DNA of 64,000 bases from the NCBI GenBank assembly GCA_000004695.1, contig CM000154.2:4864001-4928000 (forward strand), given 5' to 3'. The notes under the pieces were generated by a model, which saw only the letters and a program-made list of their open reading frames with translations, searched no databases and had not been told where the DNA came from. Position numbers and translations under genes: made by a program. Positions 45,003 to 57,000 of this stretch are shown one piece after another. Source of the stretch: Dictyostelium discoideum. Lineage: Eukaryota. How positions within the stretch are numbered: the stretch's first letter is position 1; each line of letters begins with the position of its first letter.

Positions 45003-48000
45003 CCTTACTAAACTTAAGTATTTATATATATATATTTAGTCATTAAAAGATTTTGAATCAGTTATATCAGATATATTTTGGTTAATTAGTATAGAGGTTG
45101 AAGGAGTTGTATCGAAATCATCACAAAAAACAAATTTAATCTCATTGATTAAAGAAAGTATCTCTCAAAGTTTAGTTGCATCTGTCATTCTAAAAGAGAA
45201 ATTAGATATTGATTTACTTGAAGAATCTGGTTTAATTAAAAGTTCAAAGAAATTTACAAATAAAATTATTAGAATAAATACAAAAGAAGTGTATGTTATT
45301 ATATAATATATAATATATAAAAATCACACACACACATTCACCTACCAACCACTAATTTTATATATTTTTATATTTTTATATTATTATATTTTTATATTTT
45401 TATATTTTTATATTTTTTTTTTTTTTTAGATATACTCAAGTTAAATTTAATTTATTTAAAGAAGAATCAGAAGGTTTTTCAAAAGTTTTATCAGAATTAA
45501 ATAAAGGATCAGAATTAAATTTGAATTCAGTCGATTCAACTATTCAAAATATTAAATCATTGATTGGTTATTTCAATTTAGATCCAAATCGTGTTTTAGA
45601 TTTAGTATTGGATTCATATGAACAAAATTATCAAAATTCTGAATGTTTTCAAAAGATTATTAAATGTTTTAAAATATCTGCAATACCCCAATTATTGGGG
45701 TTTAAATATCAATATTATCAACAACAACAACATTTACAAATTCAACATATTAAACAACAATTAGAACAACAACAACAAGCTGCTGCTGCTGCTCCAACTA
45801 CTACATCTACAACTGATTCTACAACTACTACTGCAGCAACAACGACACCAACAACAACACCAGCATCAGCATCAGCATCAGCAACATCAACAACAACAGC
45901 AGCCTCATCAACATCAACAACAACAACAATTAATCCAATTGATATTATTACACCAAAATCATTATATATGGTGACAGCAAATTTATTAAAAGAAAAATTA
46001 TTTACATTGGAATCGATTTATCCACATTTAGCACCAAATGATGAAGAGATAAAGAGTCAATTTTTAGCAAGAAAAGAAGAGCTTATTTCATCATCAAAGG
46101 GTGGTACCTTGCCAACCACAGCAGATGATGATTCATCGACTAATAAGAAACCAATGTCAACTAGTGGTACTACAACAATAAGTATTGGTAGTACATCATC
46201 GGTATCATTATCATCGAATAATATTGATTTATTAGTTCAAGAGAATCAGAAATTTAATTTATTAGTATCATTATTAGATGTGAATGATACTGATTGTACA
46301 AATCAATTATTATATCATTTGACATCAAACGGTATTGATGTTGCATCAAATTCACATGTATCCACTGCATTAATCTCAAGATTGAATCAAATTATTGAAC
46401 CGATTTATAGACCAATATCATTTGCAACTTTGAAATCATCATCCTCTGGTAATTGTGGTATTGATTTACCAACTTTTATGGCATCTTCAGAGATGATCTT
46501 CTTTTTACTCTCACATCTCGGTGTTTATTTATCACATGATATTAAATTATTTACAAAATTATGTAGAATTTTAGAAAAAGTTGTACCAAAAGTAATTTCT
46601 TTAGCAAATACCTCAACTATACAAGCACAAGCCGCTGCTCAAGCCCAAGCTCAAGCACAGGCTTCACAAACACAATCTGATTCAATGGTAGTAGATACAC
46701 CACCACCACCAACAACTACCACTATGATTCAACCAAATCAATATTCAACATTTAAATTAGAAATTGAAAATTTAATATCAAATGTATTATTACCAACTTT
46801 ATCAATGATACCAAGTAATCCATGTGCATCTAATGAAATTTGGGAAGTTATTAAGCATTTCCCATATCAAAAGAGATATCAACTTTATTATGAATGGAAA
46901 GAACAATATGGAAAGATATTATCATTGATAGTATTAAAACAAGAGGTAACTGGTGATACTAAAAAGATTCTTAGACGTTTATCAAAGGATAACTATAAAC
47001 AGTATGGTAGAGCCATTGGTAAATTAAGTTATGGTCACCCAACCATTGTTTTACAAGTGATTCTATCACAAGTAGAACAATACGATTCATTGGTAATACC
47101 ATTGGTTGAATCATTGAAATTCATTTCCAATTTGTCTGGTGATGTTTTATCATTTGGTTTATTGGAGAGGTTAACCATTAAACGTGATAAACTTAAACCT
47201 GATGGTACAAATATTTCATCATGGTTTCAAGCGTTGTCATTATTCATTGGCTCATTCTATAAGAAATATCCATCCACCGAATTGGAAGGGTTACTTCAGT
47301 ATACTGTAAATCAATTAAAAGAGAATAATTCATTGGATCTAATCATTTTGAAAGAATTGTTATTAAAAATGGGTCAAACTGAAATCGTTGAAGAACCACC
47401 TGAAGCTCAAATGGAGGCACAAGCTGGTGGTGAAGTATTAAAACAAGAAACTAATACAATCGTTATTACAACTGGTGGTGGTGGTGGTGGTAGTGGTACT
47501 CCTGGTGGTGCTCCTGGTAGTGGTGGTGGTGGTGGTGGTGCATTAAGTAATAGTAGTAGTATTGCAAATGCTCCTAGAAATACAAAGAAATCAATTAATA
47601 GATTAAAAGATACTTTAATCAATAGTAAATTAGCATTCTCATTCTTTGTTTTAATTGCAAAACAACGTTATGATATCATTCATAATACAAGTGAACAATC
47701 ACAACATATTAAATTAATTAGTGATCTCTATGATAAATGTCAAGAAACTTTAATTCAGTATACTGAATTCCTTACAAATCATGCAACATCTGAAAAGTAT
47801 TCAGAATTCTTTAAAGAGGATTTCAATACATTAATCACAACCTATTGCCTAGAGCCAGAAGCTGCTTTTCATATTTATAGACCAATATTTTCAAATGGTG
47901 CTGCCAATAATAGACAATTAATTGTAAATAACTGTAAACAAATTTATCCTGATGAAGTTTGGAAATCAATGAATCCTGAACTATATTCTGTATTTTGGTC

Positions 48001-50885
48001 ATATTCATTATATGACATTTATGTACCAAAAGCATTATATGAAAGTGAAATTGCAAAATTAAAGAATCAAATTACAACAATTGATTATGGTTTAGTTGGT
48101 ACTACTACTACTACCACTGCTACTGCTAGTGGTAGTGGTGGAGGTAATTCTAAAGATATTAATAAAAAGAAAAAAGATAAAGAAAGAATTCAATCAACAA
48201 TTGAAAAACTTCAAAAAGAATTGGCAATTCAAACTTTAAATCATCAAAAAGTTTTAGAACATATTCAATCATTAAAAGATAAATTCTTTGAATTTTCATT
48301 AAATTCACCTGTAAATCAAACAATTAATTCAACAACAACAACAACAACAACTTCAACAACAACTTCAACAACAACAACAACAACAACCCCTACAACAAAA
48401 GATATGTTACAAAATGGTAAAAAAGAAGGTATTATTAAATTTTTACAATATTGTATATTTCCAAGAGCAACATTTACACCAGCAGATGCAATTTATTCAG
48501 CTAAATTTGTTCAAATTTTACATAGTATTAGTACACCAAATTTCTCAACATTAAATTATTTATTAGATCTTTGTCAATCGATTACTTTTATGATTTATTC
48601 AAGTACAGAGAATGAAGCAAATAGATTTGGTAGATTTTTAAATGAATCATTAAGTATCCTAACCAAATGGAAATCATCAGAATCACTATACGATAAGGAA
48701 TGTGCAAAACTTTTAAAAACTTTAGCATTAAGTTATGATAATTTCGTTAGATTCTTTCATCGTTGTCATAAAACAATCTCTGAATCATTTTCAAATTGTT
48801 TAGAGAATGATGAATATATGGTCATTAGAAATGCGCTATTGGCATTAACTAAATTGGTTCATGTTTTCCCAGCTCATAAATCTTCTTATGAAAATATTGA
48901 AAATTTAGTATTAAAGTTAAAGAAAAGAGATGAATTGAAAACATTGGCAATTCGTTATCATTCATTATTAGAAAAAGAAAAACCAAGAATGATTGATGAT
49001 ATCATTAAACCAACAAAACCAAAAGCTAATCTAAAAGATTCAAAATCGCCAACTACAACTTCTTCAACTCAAACTACAACAACAACTTCTTCAAAAGATA
49101 GTGGCACTACTACTACAACTTCTTCATCAACTCCAACTACAACTTCTTCATCAAATAGAGATTCAATTAAAGATGCTGATATGATTGATATTAATGATGA
49201 AAATAATAATAATAATAACAAATCAAAAGAAAAAGAAAAGGAAAGAGAACGTGAAAAAGAAAGAGAAAAAGAAAAGGAAAGAGAAAAGGAAAGAGAAAGA
49301 GAACGTGAAAAAGAAAGAGAAAAAGAAAAAGAAAAGGAAAGAGAACGTGAAAGAGAGAGAGAACGTGAGAGAGAAAAAGAAAGAGATAGAGAACGTGAAA
49401 AAGAACGTGAACGTGAAAGAGAACGTGAACGTGAGAGAGAACGTGAACGTGAAAGAGAAAAAGAAAAAGAAAAAGAAAAGGAAAGAGAACGTGAACGTGA
49501 GAGAGAAAGAGAACGTGAGCGTGAACGTGAAAGAGAGCGTGAACGTGAACGTGAAAAAGAAAAAGAAAGAGATAGAGAACAACGTGAAAAAGAAAGAGAA
49601 AGAGAACAACGTGAAAAAGAAAGAGATAGAAGTGATCGTAATTCCGATAAAAATAATAATAATGATGGTGGTGGTAGTGGTAGTTCAAGAAGTGATAAAT
49701 CCTCTTCAAAAGATAGTGGTAGTAAAAAAGATCAACAAACTCCACGTAAAGAAATTGAAAAATCAGAATCAAGAGAGAATATTCGTGATTCACGTTCAAA
49801 TGATAACAATCAATCATTATCATCCTCTCGTGAAATTAGAGAAAGAGATAAAGAATTAAAAGAAAAAGAGCAACGTGAAAAGGAACAACGTGATAAAGAT
49901 CGTGAAAATAGGGAAAGAGATAATAGAGATGTTAGAGATTCACGTAATGATCAAAGAGGTAATCAAGAAAGAGATGGTGGTGAACCTCAACAACGTAGAC
50001 AACAACAACAACAGCAACAAGAAAGAGATAGAAACGATATTAGGAATCAAGATAATAACAATAATGACTCTCAACAACAACAACAACAACAACAACGTAG
50101 ACAACAAGACAATGATAGAAGAGATAGAGGTAATCAAGATAATATAAATAATAGAGATAATAATAGCAACAATAGAAATGATAATAGAGAAAGACAACCT
50201 AATCAAGATAATAGAGATAACAACAATAATAATAGTAATAGAAATGAAAGAAATGATAGAAATGATAGTAGTAGAGAAAGACAGGATAATAGAAATGAAA
50301 GAAATGATAGTAGAGAAAGACAAGACACTAGAGATAATCGTAAAGATCAACAAAGAGATAATGATAAATCAAATCAAGTGCAAAGGAATCGTGATTCTCA
50401 ACCATCGTCACGTAATTCTTCACCACCCCATAACCAACCACAACAACATCAATCACAGCAACAACAACCACAACAACTTTCTCCACCAATTCCACAAACC
50501 GATGAAGAGAAATTTAAAAATGCAAAGAAAAAGAGAGAAGAGAAATTTGAAAGTAAACAAAAAAATAATAATGAAATCGATCAAGAATCACCTCCAAATA
50601 ATAATAATAATAGTAATCAATCATCAAATTCAAATCCATCTTCAAATCAAAGTAGTAGATCAAATAGTAAGGATAGAAGTGGTGGTCAACAAACTCCTCG
50701 TGATAATCAAGAAAGACAAAGTGGTGAAAATAATAATAATAACAACAATAATAATAATAACACTAGAGATGACCATGATAATAAAGATAAATTAAAAGAA
50801 ATGAGAGATAATATTCGTAAAAAACAAGAAAGTAATAATAATCAAAATAATAATCAAAATAATAATAATAATAATAATAATAATC

Positions 50886-50942
<57 letters not shown>

Positions 50943-51295
50943 CACCACAAGAAAATAGAGAGGATAAAAAGAGAGATAGAGAAAAAGAAGAAGAAAAGGA
51001 AGATCAAAAGAAAAGAAAAACTCAAATTAATCGTAATAGAGTTGGACCATCACCACCTCCACAAAATCTTCACCCTTACCAACCTCCTCAACATCTTCAA
51101 CATCCTCAACATCCTCAACATCCTCATCATCCTATGTCACACCACCATAATCAACACCACAACCAACAACAACAGCAACAACAACAACATCATGGAGGAT
51201 TTAGAGGTGGTAGAAATGACAGAAATGATAGAGATGTTAGAGATGTTAGAGATGAAAGAGATAACAGGAATGATAGATATAATAGAAGAAATTAA
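44746..51295 (+). CDS. thoc2: THO complex subunit 2 (THOC2/Tho2) orthologue with a very long Arg/Glu/Asp/Lys/Asn-rich C-terminal tail. Exons 44746..~44970 (3' boundary unresolved), 45040..45290, 45430..51295.
   Basis: ATG 44746. N-terminal exons align from memory to metazoan THOC2: YDPVNSYIKGSI ~ YELSYHVIKGNL; ISDIFWLISIE ~ ILADVFCILDIE; LLEESGLIKSSKKF ~ LESLGLIKQSQQF; YTQVKFNLFKEESEGFSKVL ~ [44 protein letters not shown] ~ [25 protein letters not shown]. Donor GTATGT at 45291 (phase 2), acceptor tttttttag ending 45429. C-terminal third encoded by nucleotide-level tandem repeats (GAAAGAGAACGTGAAAAA...) giving (KE/RE/RD)n. Confidence 0.8.
49227..49625 (+). repeat. Coding tandem repeat array in thoc2 (units of GAAAGAGAACGTGAAAAA / GAAAAAGAAAAG) encoding (RE/KE/RD)n
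   Basis: Near-perfect nucleotide-level repeats of gaaagagaacgtgaa / aaagaaaaagaaaag over ~400 bp, followed by a degenerate R/D/N/Q-rich low-complexity coding region to ~51290. Confidence 0.85.
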
Positions 51296-51457: not shown

Positions 51458-53902
51458 ATGAAACAAACAAAAAAAGTGGTGGTTGAACCAAAACCATATA
51501 TTAAGGGTGAATTTAAAAATAGATGTTTTGCAAAAGATTTAACTATTACATTTTCAATGGGTGCATTACAAAAGATTAGAAAAATGGATTCAATTGAAAG
51601 GTATGAAACAGTTATGAAGAGTAAAGATTATCAACAATTCAATTCATTTGAATACTTTCAAATGAAAGTTAGTACTTTAATTGCAATTCCATCAAACTAT
51701 TCATTCATTTACCCAATTGGTGAGTTTAATTTCAATGAAAATAAAAATCAATATGAATTTAAACCAATTGAATTCCTAAAAGCAATTGAATTGGTTAAAA
51801 GGGATAGAAGTGGTTTAATCTCTTTTACTTTTTTAAAATCAGTGATTAATAATGGTCCTGAATTTGAATATATAAAAACAAAACCACCATCTAAAAATTA
51901 TTATCAACATGGGCCTTACTATTTAAATAAATCAAACTTGAATGAATGGGAAACAACTTGTGCAAAGTTTGATCAAGAAAATGGTTTAATCTATAAAATG
52001 ATCACAAATAAAAGGTCATCACCATTTTATTCAACTTTAAAAATATTAGTTCATAGAGAAATTAAATTTGGTTTATCAAGTAGTTCGCATACATCACACA
52101 CCTATCCCATTGATAATAATCAACCATATTACCATATTTTAGAAAAAGAAACTGGTTTAAAAACTTTATCAGATGAAAATAATCAAAATAATCAAAATAA
52201 TCAAAATGATGAAAATAATCAAAATGATCAAAATAATGAAAATGATCAAAATGATCAAAATGATGATAATAATAAAGGTTGGGTAGTTAAAAATGAATTT
52301 CCATTTGGATTTTTTTTATTACCAAATCTTAAAGAAATTTGTTTTTCAGTTTTAAAAGAAATGTTTTTAATTAGTAATAAATCAGTTATTGATAAATTAT
52401 TTTCATCAATTAAATCGATAGTACCAATTAGTTTATTACAAGAATTTGTAGTTGATTGTTTTAATGATGAGAAACCAGTTGGTAATGAAATTATTTTTAA
52501 AATTTATTCAAAATCTTTATGTGAAAATTATGATTCAATTCTTTCAAATATTAATTTCCCATTAAATGATTTATTATCAAGTTGTATTAAAAGAGATTCT
52601 TGGTTTAGATATAACTATGATATGTGTATTGCACAAGATTTATTTTATCCACCTTATAAAGAAAATTTTGCAATTAATGTTTATGAAAATTTAAATTTAT
52701 TTAAATTTAAATCGATTCCGATTGAAAATAGAAAAAATATTTTATTTGAAAAAACTGGTGGTTTGGATGATTTTAACTCTTTGATTACTGGTGATCAGTC
52801 GATTGTTGACAAGTCAATGTTTATTTCAAATTTTAATAGACTTACAAATAATAGATTTAATAAAACTTTTGATGATGGTGAGAGTGGTTTTGAAAAATTA
52901 AAGAAATTAGATTGTATTTTCATTGGTGGTATTATTACAAATTGTTTAATTCAAAATGAAAATAATGATGATGGTAAGGATGTATGTGAAGGATTCGAGA
53001 AATCAGATATTGATATTTGTTTTTTCAATACATCCAACGATTTTTACGCTCAAGTTGCTCGTTTTATTGATCAGTTCTTTAAAGGTGTTGATAGGTATGA
53101 TAGTGAGGCATCAAATAATTGTAGTATTGTTTTTCAGGGAAATCATGTTACCATTTGTCAACATTATCCAAATCGTCATATTCAATTAAATCTTTATTCA
53201 CATTTATCAATTGAGGATGTTTTAATTGGTGTCGATATTGATGCAACTTGTTTTGCATTTGATGGTATTGATATATGGTGTTTAGAAAGAGCGTTGCATT
53301 CAATCAATTATCGTATTAATATCGCATCAGAGCATTCATTTTTAATTAGAGGAGATGTTAATTATCAATATAGACTACTCAAATATTTAAAACGTGGATT
53401 TGATATTTATTATTTATCAACTCCACAAATTGATAAAATTATTAATCAAGCAAACTTTGGCAATCAATCTAAATCAAATTCACCACCAACTAAAGATTTC
53501 ACCCCATCATTAAGACATGTTGGATTTTCATTATTATTATCATTAAGAATGGATTCAACACTTTACACTCCATTTTTTAAAACCAAAGAAAGATCTGAAA
53601 CTATTTTACCCTATGGTCCAAATTTTGATGATAAATATTTTAAAAGATGGGTAGGTCATAATTTCAATAAACACTACGATGGCTATAATAGTAATGATAT
53701 TCTTCAACTACTAGAAACTCCTATTTCAGATATGGATATGGGCCATAGAGATTCAATATCTTATAATCATGAATGGATCAACTCATTAAATGATAGATCA
53801 TCTAATTACATATACAATGAAGATTATTATTATAATTTTGAAGTAGATGATGAAGAAGAAGACGGTGGTGAACCTAATTACCCCGAATATAATGATTCAT
53901 AA
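51458..53902 (+). CDS. Orphan protein (814 aa), single exon. The C-terminal region has a Pol-beta-superfamily nucleotidyltransferase-like motif set (OAS/cGAS/Mab-21-like); N-terminal two-thirds are unassigned.
   Basis: ATG 51458-51460. Continuous 2445-nt ORF with typical Dictyostelium codon bias and a (CAAAAT/GAT)n Asn/Gln/Asp tract. Motifs: IGGIITNCLIQNENNDDGKDVCEGFEKSDIDICFFNTS (hGG...[S]DhDh, with an N/D-rich insert) and LIGVDIDATCFAFDGI (third acidic residue in an h[DE]h.PAF-like context, compare OAS1 GVEFDVLPAFDAL). Confidence 0.65.
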   Translation: MKQTKKVVVEPKPYIKGEFKNRCFAKDLTITFSMGALQKIRKMDSIERYETVMKSKDYQQFNSFEYFQMKVSTLIAIPSNYSFIYPIGEFNFNENKNQYEFKPIEFLKAIELVKRDRSGLISFTFLKSVINNGPEFEYIKTKPPSKNYYQHGPYYLNKSNLNEWETTCAKFDQENGLIYKMITNKRSSPFYSTLKILVHREIKFGLSSSSHTSHTYPIDNNQPYYHILEKETGLKTLSDENNQNNQNNQNDENNQNDQNNENDQNDQNDDNNKGWVVKNEFPFGFFLLPNLKEICFSVLKEMFLISNKSVIDKLFSSIKSIVPISLLQEFVVDCFNDEKPVGNEIIFKIYSKSLCENYDSILSNINFPLNDLLSSCIKRDSWFRYNYDMCIAQDLFYPPYKENFAINVYENLNLFKFKSIPIENRKNILFEKTGGLDDFNSLITGDQSIVDKSMFISNFNRLTNNRFNKTFDDGESGFEKLKKLDCIFIGGIITNCLIQNENNDDGKDVCEGFEKSDIDICFFNTSNDFYAQVARFIDQFFKGVDRYDSEASNNCSIVFQGNHVTICQHYPNRHIQLNLYSHLSIEDVLIGVDIDATCFAFDGIDIWCLERALHSINYRINIASEHSFLIRGDVNYQYRLLKYLKRGFDIYYLSTPQIDKIINQANFGNQSKSNSPPTKDFTPSLRHVGFSLLLSLRMDSTLYTPFFKTKERSETILPYGPNFDDKYFKRWVGHNFNKHYDGYNSNDILQLLETPISDMDMGHRDSISYNHEWINSLNDRSSNYIYNEDYYYNFEVDDEEEDGGEPNYPEYNDS

Positions 53903-54029: not shown

Positions 54030-57000
54030 TTAATTTAATTGTTTTAATTTGCTTTGTATTTGTTCTTTAAACTTTTTGGAATTTTTATTTTTGATAAAAA
54101 TGTATACAACCGAGATAACAATAATTGCCACAAAACACACTGAACCAATTACAATTCCTGCGATTTTACTGGCTGATAATCCATTTGATTTCGAACAAAT
54201 TGAATTCTCTCCTGATGCTGATTCGCTATCTAATAAAACAAAGAAATCTGGATCAATAATTACTTTATTTTTAAAATGTGGAATTTTAATTCCAATAAAA
54301 GTTTGAGTAGAGTGAGATGTTGATTCAGCAATTGTATTTTGGAATTCATCTAACAATGTATTTTCAATACCAACAATATTACCATCTACTACAGCCCTTT
54401 TAATGAATCTACCATACATTGAATGATCTTGAACTTGAAGTTTAATGTAGTTAGAGTTGTCACCATTTGTAGTATCACCAAATTGTTTTAATGAACAAAA
54501 ATCATCACTTTCATCTGTTGATAATATCGAAGCAAACATTACCAATTCGAGATTATTTAAAGCTGAAGAGAATACATAATTTTCAATTTCAATGGTAAAT
54601 TTGACTGATGATGGATTCATTTGGAGCTCTTGACCTGCAAATGTTATATTTTTGCTTGAATTAAACCATTGAATAATTGTTGTTATATTTGTGGTTTTAA
54701 TATCGTTACCATTTTGAGAAACTATTGATGTATTGTATCTACCAGTTGTTAAATCTATATCTTCAAATACCCATTTATCAAAAGGGAATGTTTTAATAAC
54801 TTCACCTTTAAAATCTAATTCTCTAATAGAAACTAAAGTTACTAATGATTTAAATAAAAATTCTGTTGAGTTTGTTTCTTGTCCACCACCACCGCCTGTA
54901 ATAGGAATTTCAACTGTTGGTTGTGAAGTATTTGTTTGTGGTGTTGGGATAATAATAATTTTTGAAGTACAATCAACTCCGTACCAAGGAGAGTAACAAA
55001 TGCATCCAAACCCACTTTGACAATAACCTTTGTTTTTTCCTCCACATTCTGGATTTCCTAAACATTTTTGAGGTGGATTTGTTGGTAATGGTGATATAGT
55101 TGGTTGTAAAGTTGGTTGTAAAGTTGGTTCTGGTGTATATGTTGGACCAGAATAATTAAAATTATAAACTATTGGATTAATTAAAAATTCATTTGATTTA
55201 ATGTTAATTTGATTGGAATCAAGTAATAATAATTTAAAAGGAATATCGATTAATGGTACCTCTGTTAATTTAATGAAACTTGAATAGGTTTTAGTTATTG
55301 TTTTTAAATTTATGTCACTACCATTCGAAATATAAATAATCGCTGTATCAACTGTACGAAAGTTTTTACCAAAAATAAATAGAGTTGAATCTTTGTTTGT
55401 AAATTCTGAAACTGATGTTATTATTGGTATATTAAATGAAAAATCTGTAGAAACAAACCAATCTTGTTGTAATGGATTTAAATCCTTAATGTCTTTTGAA
55501 GAGAATCCACTATAGGTTCCTCTATTATTAATAAAGCCATAAACAGATACTAAGAAACCATCAGGATATCCAAAACCTACTGGTACTTCTATTGTACACG
55601 AAAAGGTTATTGTAGTTGAATTAGTAATTGTTGGTGTTGCTCGGCATTGTTCCATTGCAAGTCGTTGTGGAACTAAATAAACTATTGGATTCTGTCCTTG
55701 TTTAAAACCGCTTTCTAAATCTTGTGCTTGAAAAGTGAATGTTATTGATCTATCTAAAGAGCCTACATCCATTGAAGATCTCGAGGTTTTAAAGGAAATT
55801 AAATTTGGAGGAGAACTATCCAATTCACCAGTACAATAATAATTAATACTAAAGGGTGATGAATCATTAATGAAATGAATAAATGGATTACGAGTTGACT
55901 CAAACGATTGAGTGTTTTCATAATACTCTAAAGTGAAATATTTAACATATGTATTATTGTTACCATATGTATCGAATAAACTTGCTTGAGTTATTAAATA
56001 ATCTTGAGTGATACAATTACTACTCCCAATACCAAACTCCAATGGTATTATAATTTTGTAATCACCAATAATTTTATCACCACTTCCTTCTATTAAATTT
56101 GACATGTTTATTGTAATGTTGTAGAATGAAGAATCTAAAAGTCCTTTAACAATTAAAAAGCCATCTCTGAAACCGTTTATTTCATCTTGAATTGTAAATA
56201 ACCATCCATTATGTTGTTTTATGATTTTGGTTACAATTGGTCCATAAATATCAACCTTAATTGAAGTTGCTCTTAATTGATATTCATTGGATAAATAATT
56301 ACTATCAATTAAGTTTGTATTATCAAGTACCAATGCATAACTTATATTTCCTGGTAGTGTATTTGCAGGTACTTTAAAGTTTACTCTAAATCTATTGGTT
56401 GTTTGGTCCCATACTGCAAATTTATAATTTGGATTTAAAATAGTAAATATACTATTTTCAAATCTAATATCGTTTAAAGATTTTTCATCAGTTAAATAAA
56501 AACCAATTGACAAGTCTTTATAGTCTTCAATATTATTAAATGTAAAAAACATTATATTATCAACTGATTGGTCAGTTATATCAATGTCATTATATAAAAA
56601 TGATACCTGAACTAAATCATTTAAATAATTATAATCTATTAAAATAATATTAAAAAAATTATTAGTAATGAATTATAGTAGTTTTAAAAGTGTATTATTA
56701 ATACAATTTTCTTACTTTTTAAATTAATACTTGGATATGTAAGTTTTGAAATGTTATTACCAATCTGGTAGAGATAATCACCAAATCCATATGTAACTGG
56801 GTAATCTAGGTTGCCTTCTATTTTTATTGAATTTTCGGTGATAGCATTGCTTATTTCAACAAGCTCAAATTTTATTTCTGTAAGATACTCCCAAATACCA
56901 TCAGAAGCGGTACCAGAAACAAGCATACCATTATCATGAACAGTATTCTTTGAGTTCATAATTTTTAAATACGAAACTGAAGATAAATTTGGTGAGCCGA

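Follow-up and report, generated by a model that had tools for sequence, protein, structure and literature searches.

The Dictyostelium discoideum gene DDB_G0291025, which lies in the 64,000-nucleotide stretch of contig CM000154.2 analysed here (the window), encodes at amino acids (aa) ~445-760 a nucleotidyltransferase (NTase) domain of the Pol-beta superfamily. We make this assignment because its motifs are conserved, its relatives give weak Pfam matches, and a confident AlphaFold2 (AF2) model has only NTases as neighbours in the PDB. By its modelled structure, the domain falls in the 'head plus neck' clade of class II CCA-adding enzymes, bacterial poly(A) polymerases (PAPs) and FAM46 proteins. 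The account we favour, with modest confidence, is an active, template-independent NTase of this class II/TENT5 structural clade that would add nucleotides to a nucleic-acid 3' end, a reaction and an acceptor that we infer. A first-pass annotation had described the gene product as an orphan protein with the motif triad of an OAS/cGAS/Mab-21/CD-NTase-type enzyme; its call of a Pol-beta-fold NTase with an intact hG[GS]...DhDh signature agrees with the conservation, the Pfam matches of relatives and the structural neighbours alike. Exact-sequence look-up identified the protein as XP_635460.1 / Q54F77 (Q54F77_DICDI) of D. discoideum AX4, annotated 'hypothetical protein'. The gene and the two parts of its NTase region are:

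51458..53902, + strand: single-exon gene DDB_G0291025, 814 aa, stop codon included (open reading frame (ORF) list; exact-sequence identity to XP_635460.1)
52790..53422, + strand: NTase head and start of neck, aa 445-655, the core common to the whole family
53423..53737, + strand: C-terminal helical extension, aa 656-760, with LPYGP and HYDGY motifs (model helices at a predicted local distance difference test (pLDDT) of 88-96)

The AF2 model of aa 445-760 was built from a 63-sequence domain alignment (A4) and reached a mean pLDDT of 88.6 and a predicted template modelling score of 0.88; it was used in place of a model from 5 sequences, which had a pLDDT of 57.5. All PDB neighbours of the model were NTases, with the following structure-comparison scores:

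3wfo, A-adding enzyme: 10.9
3aql, bacterial poly(A) polymerase: 10.0
6jyj, TENT5B/FAM46B: 9.6, with 191 residues aligned
3h37, CCA-adding enzyme: 9.2
4wby: 9.1
9kma, Arabidopsis CCA enzyme: 8.9
1miv: 8.1, at 21% identity
2la3, 'CCA-adding enzyme head domain': 7.8
cGLR1, the first cGAS/OAS-type entry: 5.2
DncV: 5.0
OAS2: 4.8
CdnE/G/D: 4.0-4.3

Entries of cGAS/OAS type scored level with Pol beta, Pol mu and aminoglycoside or lincosamide NTases. The top 16 Foldseek matches were exclusively class II CCA-adding or A-adding enzymes or bacterial PAP (best E 3.8e-4, probability 0.82-1.0), and the immune-type NTases followed at E values of 0.056 (CdnC), 0.19 (OAS1) and 0.45 or worse (DncV). Similarity to the class II enzymes spans both head and neck, in keeping with a structural phylogeny that joins class II CCA enzymes, bacterial PAP and FAM46B/C in one 'head plus neck' NTase clade (PMC11646218). 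Among 63 relatives, Pfam gave weak matches to NTP_transf_2 (9/63) and Polbeta (8/63, best E 5.6e-4), and other weak ones to DUF4269, MdcG and DUF6036; in PADLOC, AbiEii was weakly touched by a few members. 'Class II/TENT5-like nucleotidyltransferase-domain protein' is therefore a defensible annotation for DDB_G0291025; for this gene alone, it amounts to an ordinary family assignment.

These comparisons bear directly on the proposal that DDB_G0291025 is an OAS/cGAS/Mab-21/CD-NTase-type enzyme whose products, 2'-5' oligoadenylates or cyclic oligonucleotides, would serve as a second messenger of innate immunity. The Pol-beta core and the GG/GS...DxD signature are indeed held in common with OAS, cGAS, cGLR and the bacterial CD-NTases, at superfamily level only; the string GVDIDATCFAFDG superficially resembles 'GVEFDVLPAFD', quoted from OAS1 in the first-pass annotation; a PADLOC oligonucleotide-cyclase model was weakly touched by 2/63 relatives (E 0.024), though not by DDB_G0291025 itself; and family members abound in amoebae and the giant viruses of amoebae, a setting of conflict. 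However, neither DDB_G0291025 nor any of the 63 relatives had a Pfam match to Mab-21, OAS1_C or SMODS, the fold ranking places class II CCA/PAP/TENT5 enzymes first, the third motif sits after a helix as does class II motif B and not on the strand of the third carboxylate, and among the domains fused to relatives we found no effector or sensor partner typical of OAS/cGAS-type pathways. We consider this assignment very improbable. Comparison of a predicted model with OAS1, cGAS and CD-NTases, the check suggested at the outset, bore out the NTase fold and not OAS/cGAS-type enzymes as its closest neighbours, so that a tempting claim of an amoebozoan cGAS/OAS, which lacks support, is corrected.

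To judge the motifs individually, we counted residues in 152 family representatives clustered at 50% identity, to which all conservation counts below refer. Motif A comprises:

52925..52930, + strand: G490-G491, the hG[GS] half of NTase motif A (G490 in 150/152; G491 is G in 142 and S in 7)
52952..53002, + strand: variable loop between GG and DxD, aa 499-515, with a short N/D-rich expansion (pLDDT 76-77)
53006..53014, + strand: D517-I-D519, the metal-binding DxD of motif A, on strand beta2 (D517 in 150/152, D519 in 149/152)

In the AF2 model the GG follows strand E42-45 and the DxD lies on strand E74-79; S516, just before the DxD, is kept in 130/152. Together, GG and DxD constitute a genuine motif A. 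By itself, the signature is weak evidence, a lead, because a loose regular expression for it matched 3.6% of composition-preserving shuffles of DDB_G0291025; motif A alone matched 4.5%, and the third element adds almost nothing over it. Both strings quoted in the first-pass annotation are present within 52900-53420, FIGGIITNCLIQNENNDDGKDVCEGFEKSDIDICFF at aa 488-523 (nucleotides 52919-53026) and IGVDIDATCFAFDG at aa 590-603 (nucleotides 53225-53266). The 'long N/D-rich insertion' described between GG and DxD is N/D-rich but short: the whole stretch is a variable loop of 25 residues in DDB_G0291025, compared with 16 in Cavenderia and 4 fewer in the D. discoideum strain protein P0001, and its length varies family-wide.

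Downstream of motif A, four further elements are strongly conserved:

53183..53185, + strand: Q576 in YPxRHIQ, which opens the third strand after the DxD helix (Q in 146/152; strand E131-138 of the model)
53234..53242, + strand: D593-I-D595 (D593 in 151/152; D595 is D in 135 and E in 9)
53258..53266, + strand: F601-D602-G603, the hairpin turn after the motif B position (D602 in 131/152, G603 in 150/152)
53360..53407, + strand: NYQYRLLKYLKRGFDI, aa 635-650, a conserved basic/aromatic neck helix (Y636 in 147, R639 in 149, K642 in 148, Y643 in 148, R646 in 147 and G647 in 150 of 152)

Also kept are P571 (145/152), R573 (144/152) and R611 (147/152), and we regard the neck helix as a candidate contact for the nucleoside triphosphate (NTP) or the acceptor. 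The acidic residues of SDIDI and VDIDA, whose loss in close orthologues was to have counted against an NTase, are retained in orthologues and distant relatives alike.

The third motif is conserved, but its reading as the canonical third carboxylate is probably mistaken. In the AF2 model VDID (A4 positions 148-151) lies off the sheet strands, at a distance of three residues from the preceding helix H141-146 (S-I-E-D-V-L-I) and ahead of a beta hairpin (E155-157, E162-164). Class II motif B has this layout too, with 'S/T-L-E-E-D-L-x-R-R-D-F-T-I-N-A' preceding a hairpin, and hhalign against a class II alignment pairs 'SxxEVLxGFDID' with 'TLEEDLxRRDFTINA'. None of the predicted strands offers a conserved acidic residue as third carboxylate, and the near-invariant Q576 opens the third strand. 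The same pattern has been described in Pandoravirus relatives, which keep motif A, have RRD 'replaced by DFD' and lack the third carboxylate, its site being taken by a highly conserved Gln (Q508), and in which two conserved arginines three residues apart lie further downstream (bioRxiv 10.1101/2023.12.02.569716). The Gln-to-Asp spacing is 17 in both cases, from Q508 to D525 in Pandoravirus and from Q576 to D593 in DDB_G0291025. Given the position after the helix, the class II spacing and the same conclusion in the Pandoravirus work, D593 is probably the equivalent of the class II motif B (RRD) Asp and not the canonical third carboxylate, whose position in the model is probably that of Q576. 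A near-invariant Gln where the third catalytic carboxylate would normally be expected to lie would be a peculiarity of the family as a whole.

Placing the domain among known enzymes brought out both kinship and distance. Class II tRNA nucleotidyltransferases and bacterial PAP I (PF01743; 1MIV, 3H37, 3WFO, 4WBY, 3AQL) have the GG...DxD of motif A likewise placed, a conserved Asp that stands between a helix and a beta hairpin at the motif B position, and a conserved basic helix ending in 'GF-hydrophobic' at the motif D position. Hhalign paired the family's GG and DxD with class II 'VGGxVRD...KDxD' and, with low confidence, set the neck helix opposite the EDxxR...RF...GF region. Unlike class II enzymes, the family has no 'VRD' after the GG, where hydrophobic or small residues stand instead (GGIITNCL), no RRD arginines and no EDxxR, and Gln replaces Glu/Asp at the likely third-carboxylate site. 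An alignment of eight class II sequences (Cca and PcnB of E. coli, and six enzymes from phages or viruses) shows invariant RRD and D..R..R..RF, where the family has G[FV]D and YExRLxKYxxRGF. DDB_G0291025 also lacks the tRNA-binding body and tail domains and has other domains at its N terminus. TENT5/FAM46 non-canonical poly(A) polymerases (6JYJ, 8EQB) differ as well: identity is ~10%, there is no match at the sequence level, and both the family signature (YPxRHIQ, GFDxD, YExRLxKYxxRGF) and the partner domains are distinct. As the domain has neither the RRD arginines and EDxxR nor a significant profile match to PF01743, it is best filed as a separate family within the class II/PAP/TENT5 clade.

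Close counterparts already described are the Pandoravirus 'cluster 7' BTB and nucleotidyltransferase proteins, proposed to mature viral tRNAs (bioRxiv 10.1101/2023.12.02.569716). Pandoravirus proteins were matched in BFVD at E values of 5e-9 to 1e-6, a 909-aa BTB protein among them, and the cluster 7 proteins share motif A, the conserved Gln, a [FV]D Asp 17 residues on and then two basic residues 3 apart. On the basis of this motif layout, the equal Gln-to-Asp spacing and the BFVD matches, they and the DDB_G0291025 domain probably belong to the same family, with the difference that the viral proteins carry an N-terminal BTB domain, whereas DDB_G0291025 is a cellular gene with other N-terminal domains.

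From these residues a catalytic scheme can be proposed. G490-G491 and D517/D519 of motif A would bind NTP-Mg2+, with D517 and D519 as metal ligands and Q576 in the position of the third ligand. D593, at the motif B position, may touch the ribose of the incoming nucleotide, and the conserved cluster of R611, R639, K642 and R646 would grip the triphosphate and/or the acceptor. A nucleoside monophosphate would then be moved, without a template, onto a 3'-OH, in all likelihood that of an RNA end or of the end of some other nucleic acid. Since the motif B Arg residues and EDxxR are absent, substrate and nucleotide specificity should not be transferred from the CCA enzymes.

Our preference for a nucleic-acid 3'-OH as acceptor comes mainly from fusions to PNK3P and kinase domains, which suit end healing followed by extension. 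In a Pfam scan of 58 more distant relatives, the partner domains were:

Ankyrin repeats: 10/58 relatives
PARP catalytic domain (with PARP_reg, WGR, BRCT, PBZ): 6/58 relatives
PNK3P and P-loop kinase domain (AAA_33): 2/58 relatives
TPR: 2/58 relatives
BTB, ubiquitin-like and protein kinase domains: 1/58 relatives each

A 3'-phosphatase/5'-kinase beside an NTase is what would be expected of enzymes that heal and then extend nucleic-acid ends, such as PNKP and X-family or CCA-type repair enzymes. P0060 of Diplonema ambulator (1,753 aa) and P0093 of Apiculatamorpha spiralis (2,033 aa) share the order (BRCT-)WGR-PARP_reg-PARP-[NTase domain]-PNK3P-P-loop kinase (AAA_33). These two proteins bring together a DNA-damage-type PARP, an NTase and an end-healing PNKP within one polypeptide.

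The same partner domains could be read as pointing to an active NTase with another kind of acceptor, for instance the side chain of a protein, a small molecule or a hydroxyl of ADP-ribose or poly(ADP-ribose). GlnE, the aminoglycoside NTases and MenT/AbiEii-type enzymes all use acceptors other than nucleic-acid 3' ends. Consistent with such a role, motif A is intact while the RNA- and NTP-specific motifs of class II (the RRD arginines and EDxxR) are missing, the PARP catalytic domain recurs among the fusions, and the protein-interaction modules ankyrin, BTB and TPR are frequent. Yet the best structural neighbours, by a clear margin and with the neck domain included, are enzymes that modify RNA 3' ends, the PNKP fusions point to nucleic-acid ends, and no direct evidence speaks for any acceptor of this kind; we therefore regard it as unlikely.

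Adaptor-type partners (ankyrin, BTB, TPR, ubiquitin-like) in many relatives would also suit a catalytically dead NTase-fold module that binds nucleotide or RNA or acts as a scaffold, for example as a substrate adaptor beside BTB or ankyrin. The apparent family-wide replacement of the third carboxylate by Gln576 and the degenerate class II motifs B and D are in line with this, and NTase-fold pseudoenzymes do exist, NF45/NF90 being among our structural hit lists. Against it stands the retention of G490, D517 and D519, each in 149-150/152 representatives, when pseudoenzymes usually lose residues such as the Gly and Asp of motif A. Moreover, the two motif-A carboxylates are stated to be all that class II CCA enzymes require (Hou et al. 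2005, cited in bioRxiv 10.1101/2023.12.02.569716). We regard a catalytically dead module as unlikely.

Several observations nonetheless weigh against an active class II/TENT5-like enzyme acting on nucleic-acid 3' ends. The hhalign comparison with the class II alignment was not significant (probability 7.7%, E 0.0045), and with E. coli Cca alone only motif A aligned (probability 2.5%); the preprint gives 95% for HHpred on a Pandoravirus relative (bioRxiv 10.1101/2023.12.02.569716). PolyA_pol (PF01743) had no Pfam match at E<=1 in 63 members. The absence of the motif B Arg residues and of the EDxxR templating motif, already noted, counts in the same direction, and with a Gln at the apparent third-carboxylate site, catalysis could be weak or altered. 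We infer where Q576 and D593 act in space from a predicted model, and the PARP/PNKP fusions sit in ~25%-identical paralogues, not in DDB_G0291025.

The description of the protein as an orphan proved wrong. Searched exhaustively with HMMER, a profile of aa 445-760 built from 5 sequences matched 4,868 representatives of 50%-identity clusters at E<=1e-3, 2,359 at E<=1e-10 and 220 at E<=1e-30, with the best profile hits reaching E 1e-142. A word-indexed search with the full-length protein was swamped by its N/Q-rich linker and returned 2 matches only, one from another D. discoideum strain (94% identity) and one from Cavenderia fasciculata (DFA_06733, 35%), and a domain-only profile in the same kind of search added 2 further matches, both metagenomic proteins. 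The residues of the family signature AGG...SDID...YPxRHIQ...GFDxD...FDG...YExRLxKYxxRGF are present in DDB_G0291025, which matches the domain over its full length. Parts of the C-terminal helical extension are less widespread: only some members match profile positions 186-287, and an LPYGP-like motif occurs in ~110/152 representatives.

Among the named members, D. purpureum, Tieghemostelium lacteum and C. fasciculata contribute two proteins each, Acytostelium subglobosum three and D. cf. discoideum a further two; others come from Synstelium, Balamuthia ('Ankyrin'), Diplonema and Apiculatamorpha. Giant viruses are richly represented: Foldseek against the predicted viral structures of BFVD gave 87 matches at E<1e-3, the majority of them giant-virus proteins (Fadolivirus, Pithovirus, Pandoravirus, Megavirus, Bodo saltans virus and others) that bear the annotation 'ankyrin repeat' or 'BTB domain'. 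In IMG/VR, a pattern scan yielded eight loci, and the contigs of most carry the label GVMAG (giant-virus metagenome-assembled genomes). A scan of 185,579 prokaryotic genomes with the single narrow pattern SPAE[IV]L[MLH]GF found no relative, which is weak negative evidence and does not prove absence; relatives came from eukaryotes and giant viruses only, with prokaryotes covered by this one scan. DDB_G0291025 is accordingly one of several dictyostelid paralogues in a very large family of protists and giant viruses. Others had picked out the family by computation before, in the Pandoravirus preprint and apparently in a recent Pfam entry: PF26128.2 appears in the precomputed annotation of the close relatives P0001-P0004, although a local Pfam-A scan of the same proteins gave no such match. 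Our literature search found no experimental study of the family, no paper mentioning DDB_G0291025, and nothing specific on PF26128 or on PARP/PNKP/NTase fusions.

A bolder proposal, which we put forward only speculatively and consider unlikely, is that the family forms a distinct branch of the class II/TENT5 clade, with two carboxylates and a near-invariant Gln and without RRD or EDxxR, that carries out an undescribed end-modification of damaged nucleic acids or ADP-ribose chains, as part of PARP/PNKP-linked damage responses or of the conflict of amoebae with giant viruses. If true, this would account for the repeated WGR-PARP and PNKP fusions in protists and for the large expansion beside ankyrin and BTB adaptors in amoebae and their giant viruses. 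With thousands of 50%-identity clusters, a wide spread in protists and giant viruses and repeated fusion to PARP, PNKP, ankyrin and BTB, the family merits attention, and Dictyostelium would offer a tractable host in which to find its function.

Upstream of the NTase domain, the protein consists of three further regions:

51458..52168, + strand: N-terminal region, aa 1-237, without recognisable family (no Pfam match)
52169..52273, + strand: N/Q/D-rich low-complexity linker, aa 238-272 (read from the sequence)
52319..52753, + strand: middle conserved domain, aa ~288-432, beginning LPNLKEICFSVLKE (phmmer, alignment A5)

For the N-terminal region, the closest relatives, P0016 of D. purpureum and P0013 of D. 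cf. discoideum, were the only proteins with a clear alignment. The middle domain was found in 18 relatives (phmmer domain E-values 1e-14 to 1e-41), those with a checked source being dictyostelids, and had neither a Pfam match nor a PDB sequence match. Both regions are common only to the closest relatives (dictyostelids where the source was checked) and presumably pick the partner or substrate. A loose likeness of the first ~50 residues of the middle domain to Elongin-A/F-box-like motifs (LPxLKEICxxVLKE) had no profile support and is not claimed. Pfam and NCBIfam scans of the whole protein returned low-complexity artefacts only, and sequence searches of the PDB, run both with the protein and with profiles, gave no meaningful match; weak matches to WTF and to SAGA-associated factor 73 were spurious products of the linker. 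The length of this linker varies among D. discoideum strains, and the strain protein P0001 (ACTFIW_008967), 94% identical to that of AX4 over its full length, differs by small indels that all fall within N/D/Q-rich stretches.

A six-frame profile scan found no second copy of the NTase domain in the window, which is AT-rich (GC of 0.19-0.36 around DDB_G0291025). The genes on either side are unrelated to DDB_G0291025. On one side, at 45521-51295 (+ strand), lies a homologue of THO complex subunit 2 of 1,924 aa (Pfam Tho2 7.5e-81, THOC2_N, Thoc2), whose C-terminal tail of ~700 residues is of very low complexity (ER/EK repeats, N and Q runs) and is overlapped by several spurious ORFs in other frames. 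On the other, at 54030-56552 (- strand), a ComC-family membrane protein of 840 aa (Pfam DUF7035, DUF7034, DUF7949, ComC_SSD), for which we saw no functional link, is encoded by a gene that converges on the 3' end of DDB_G0291025.

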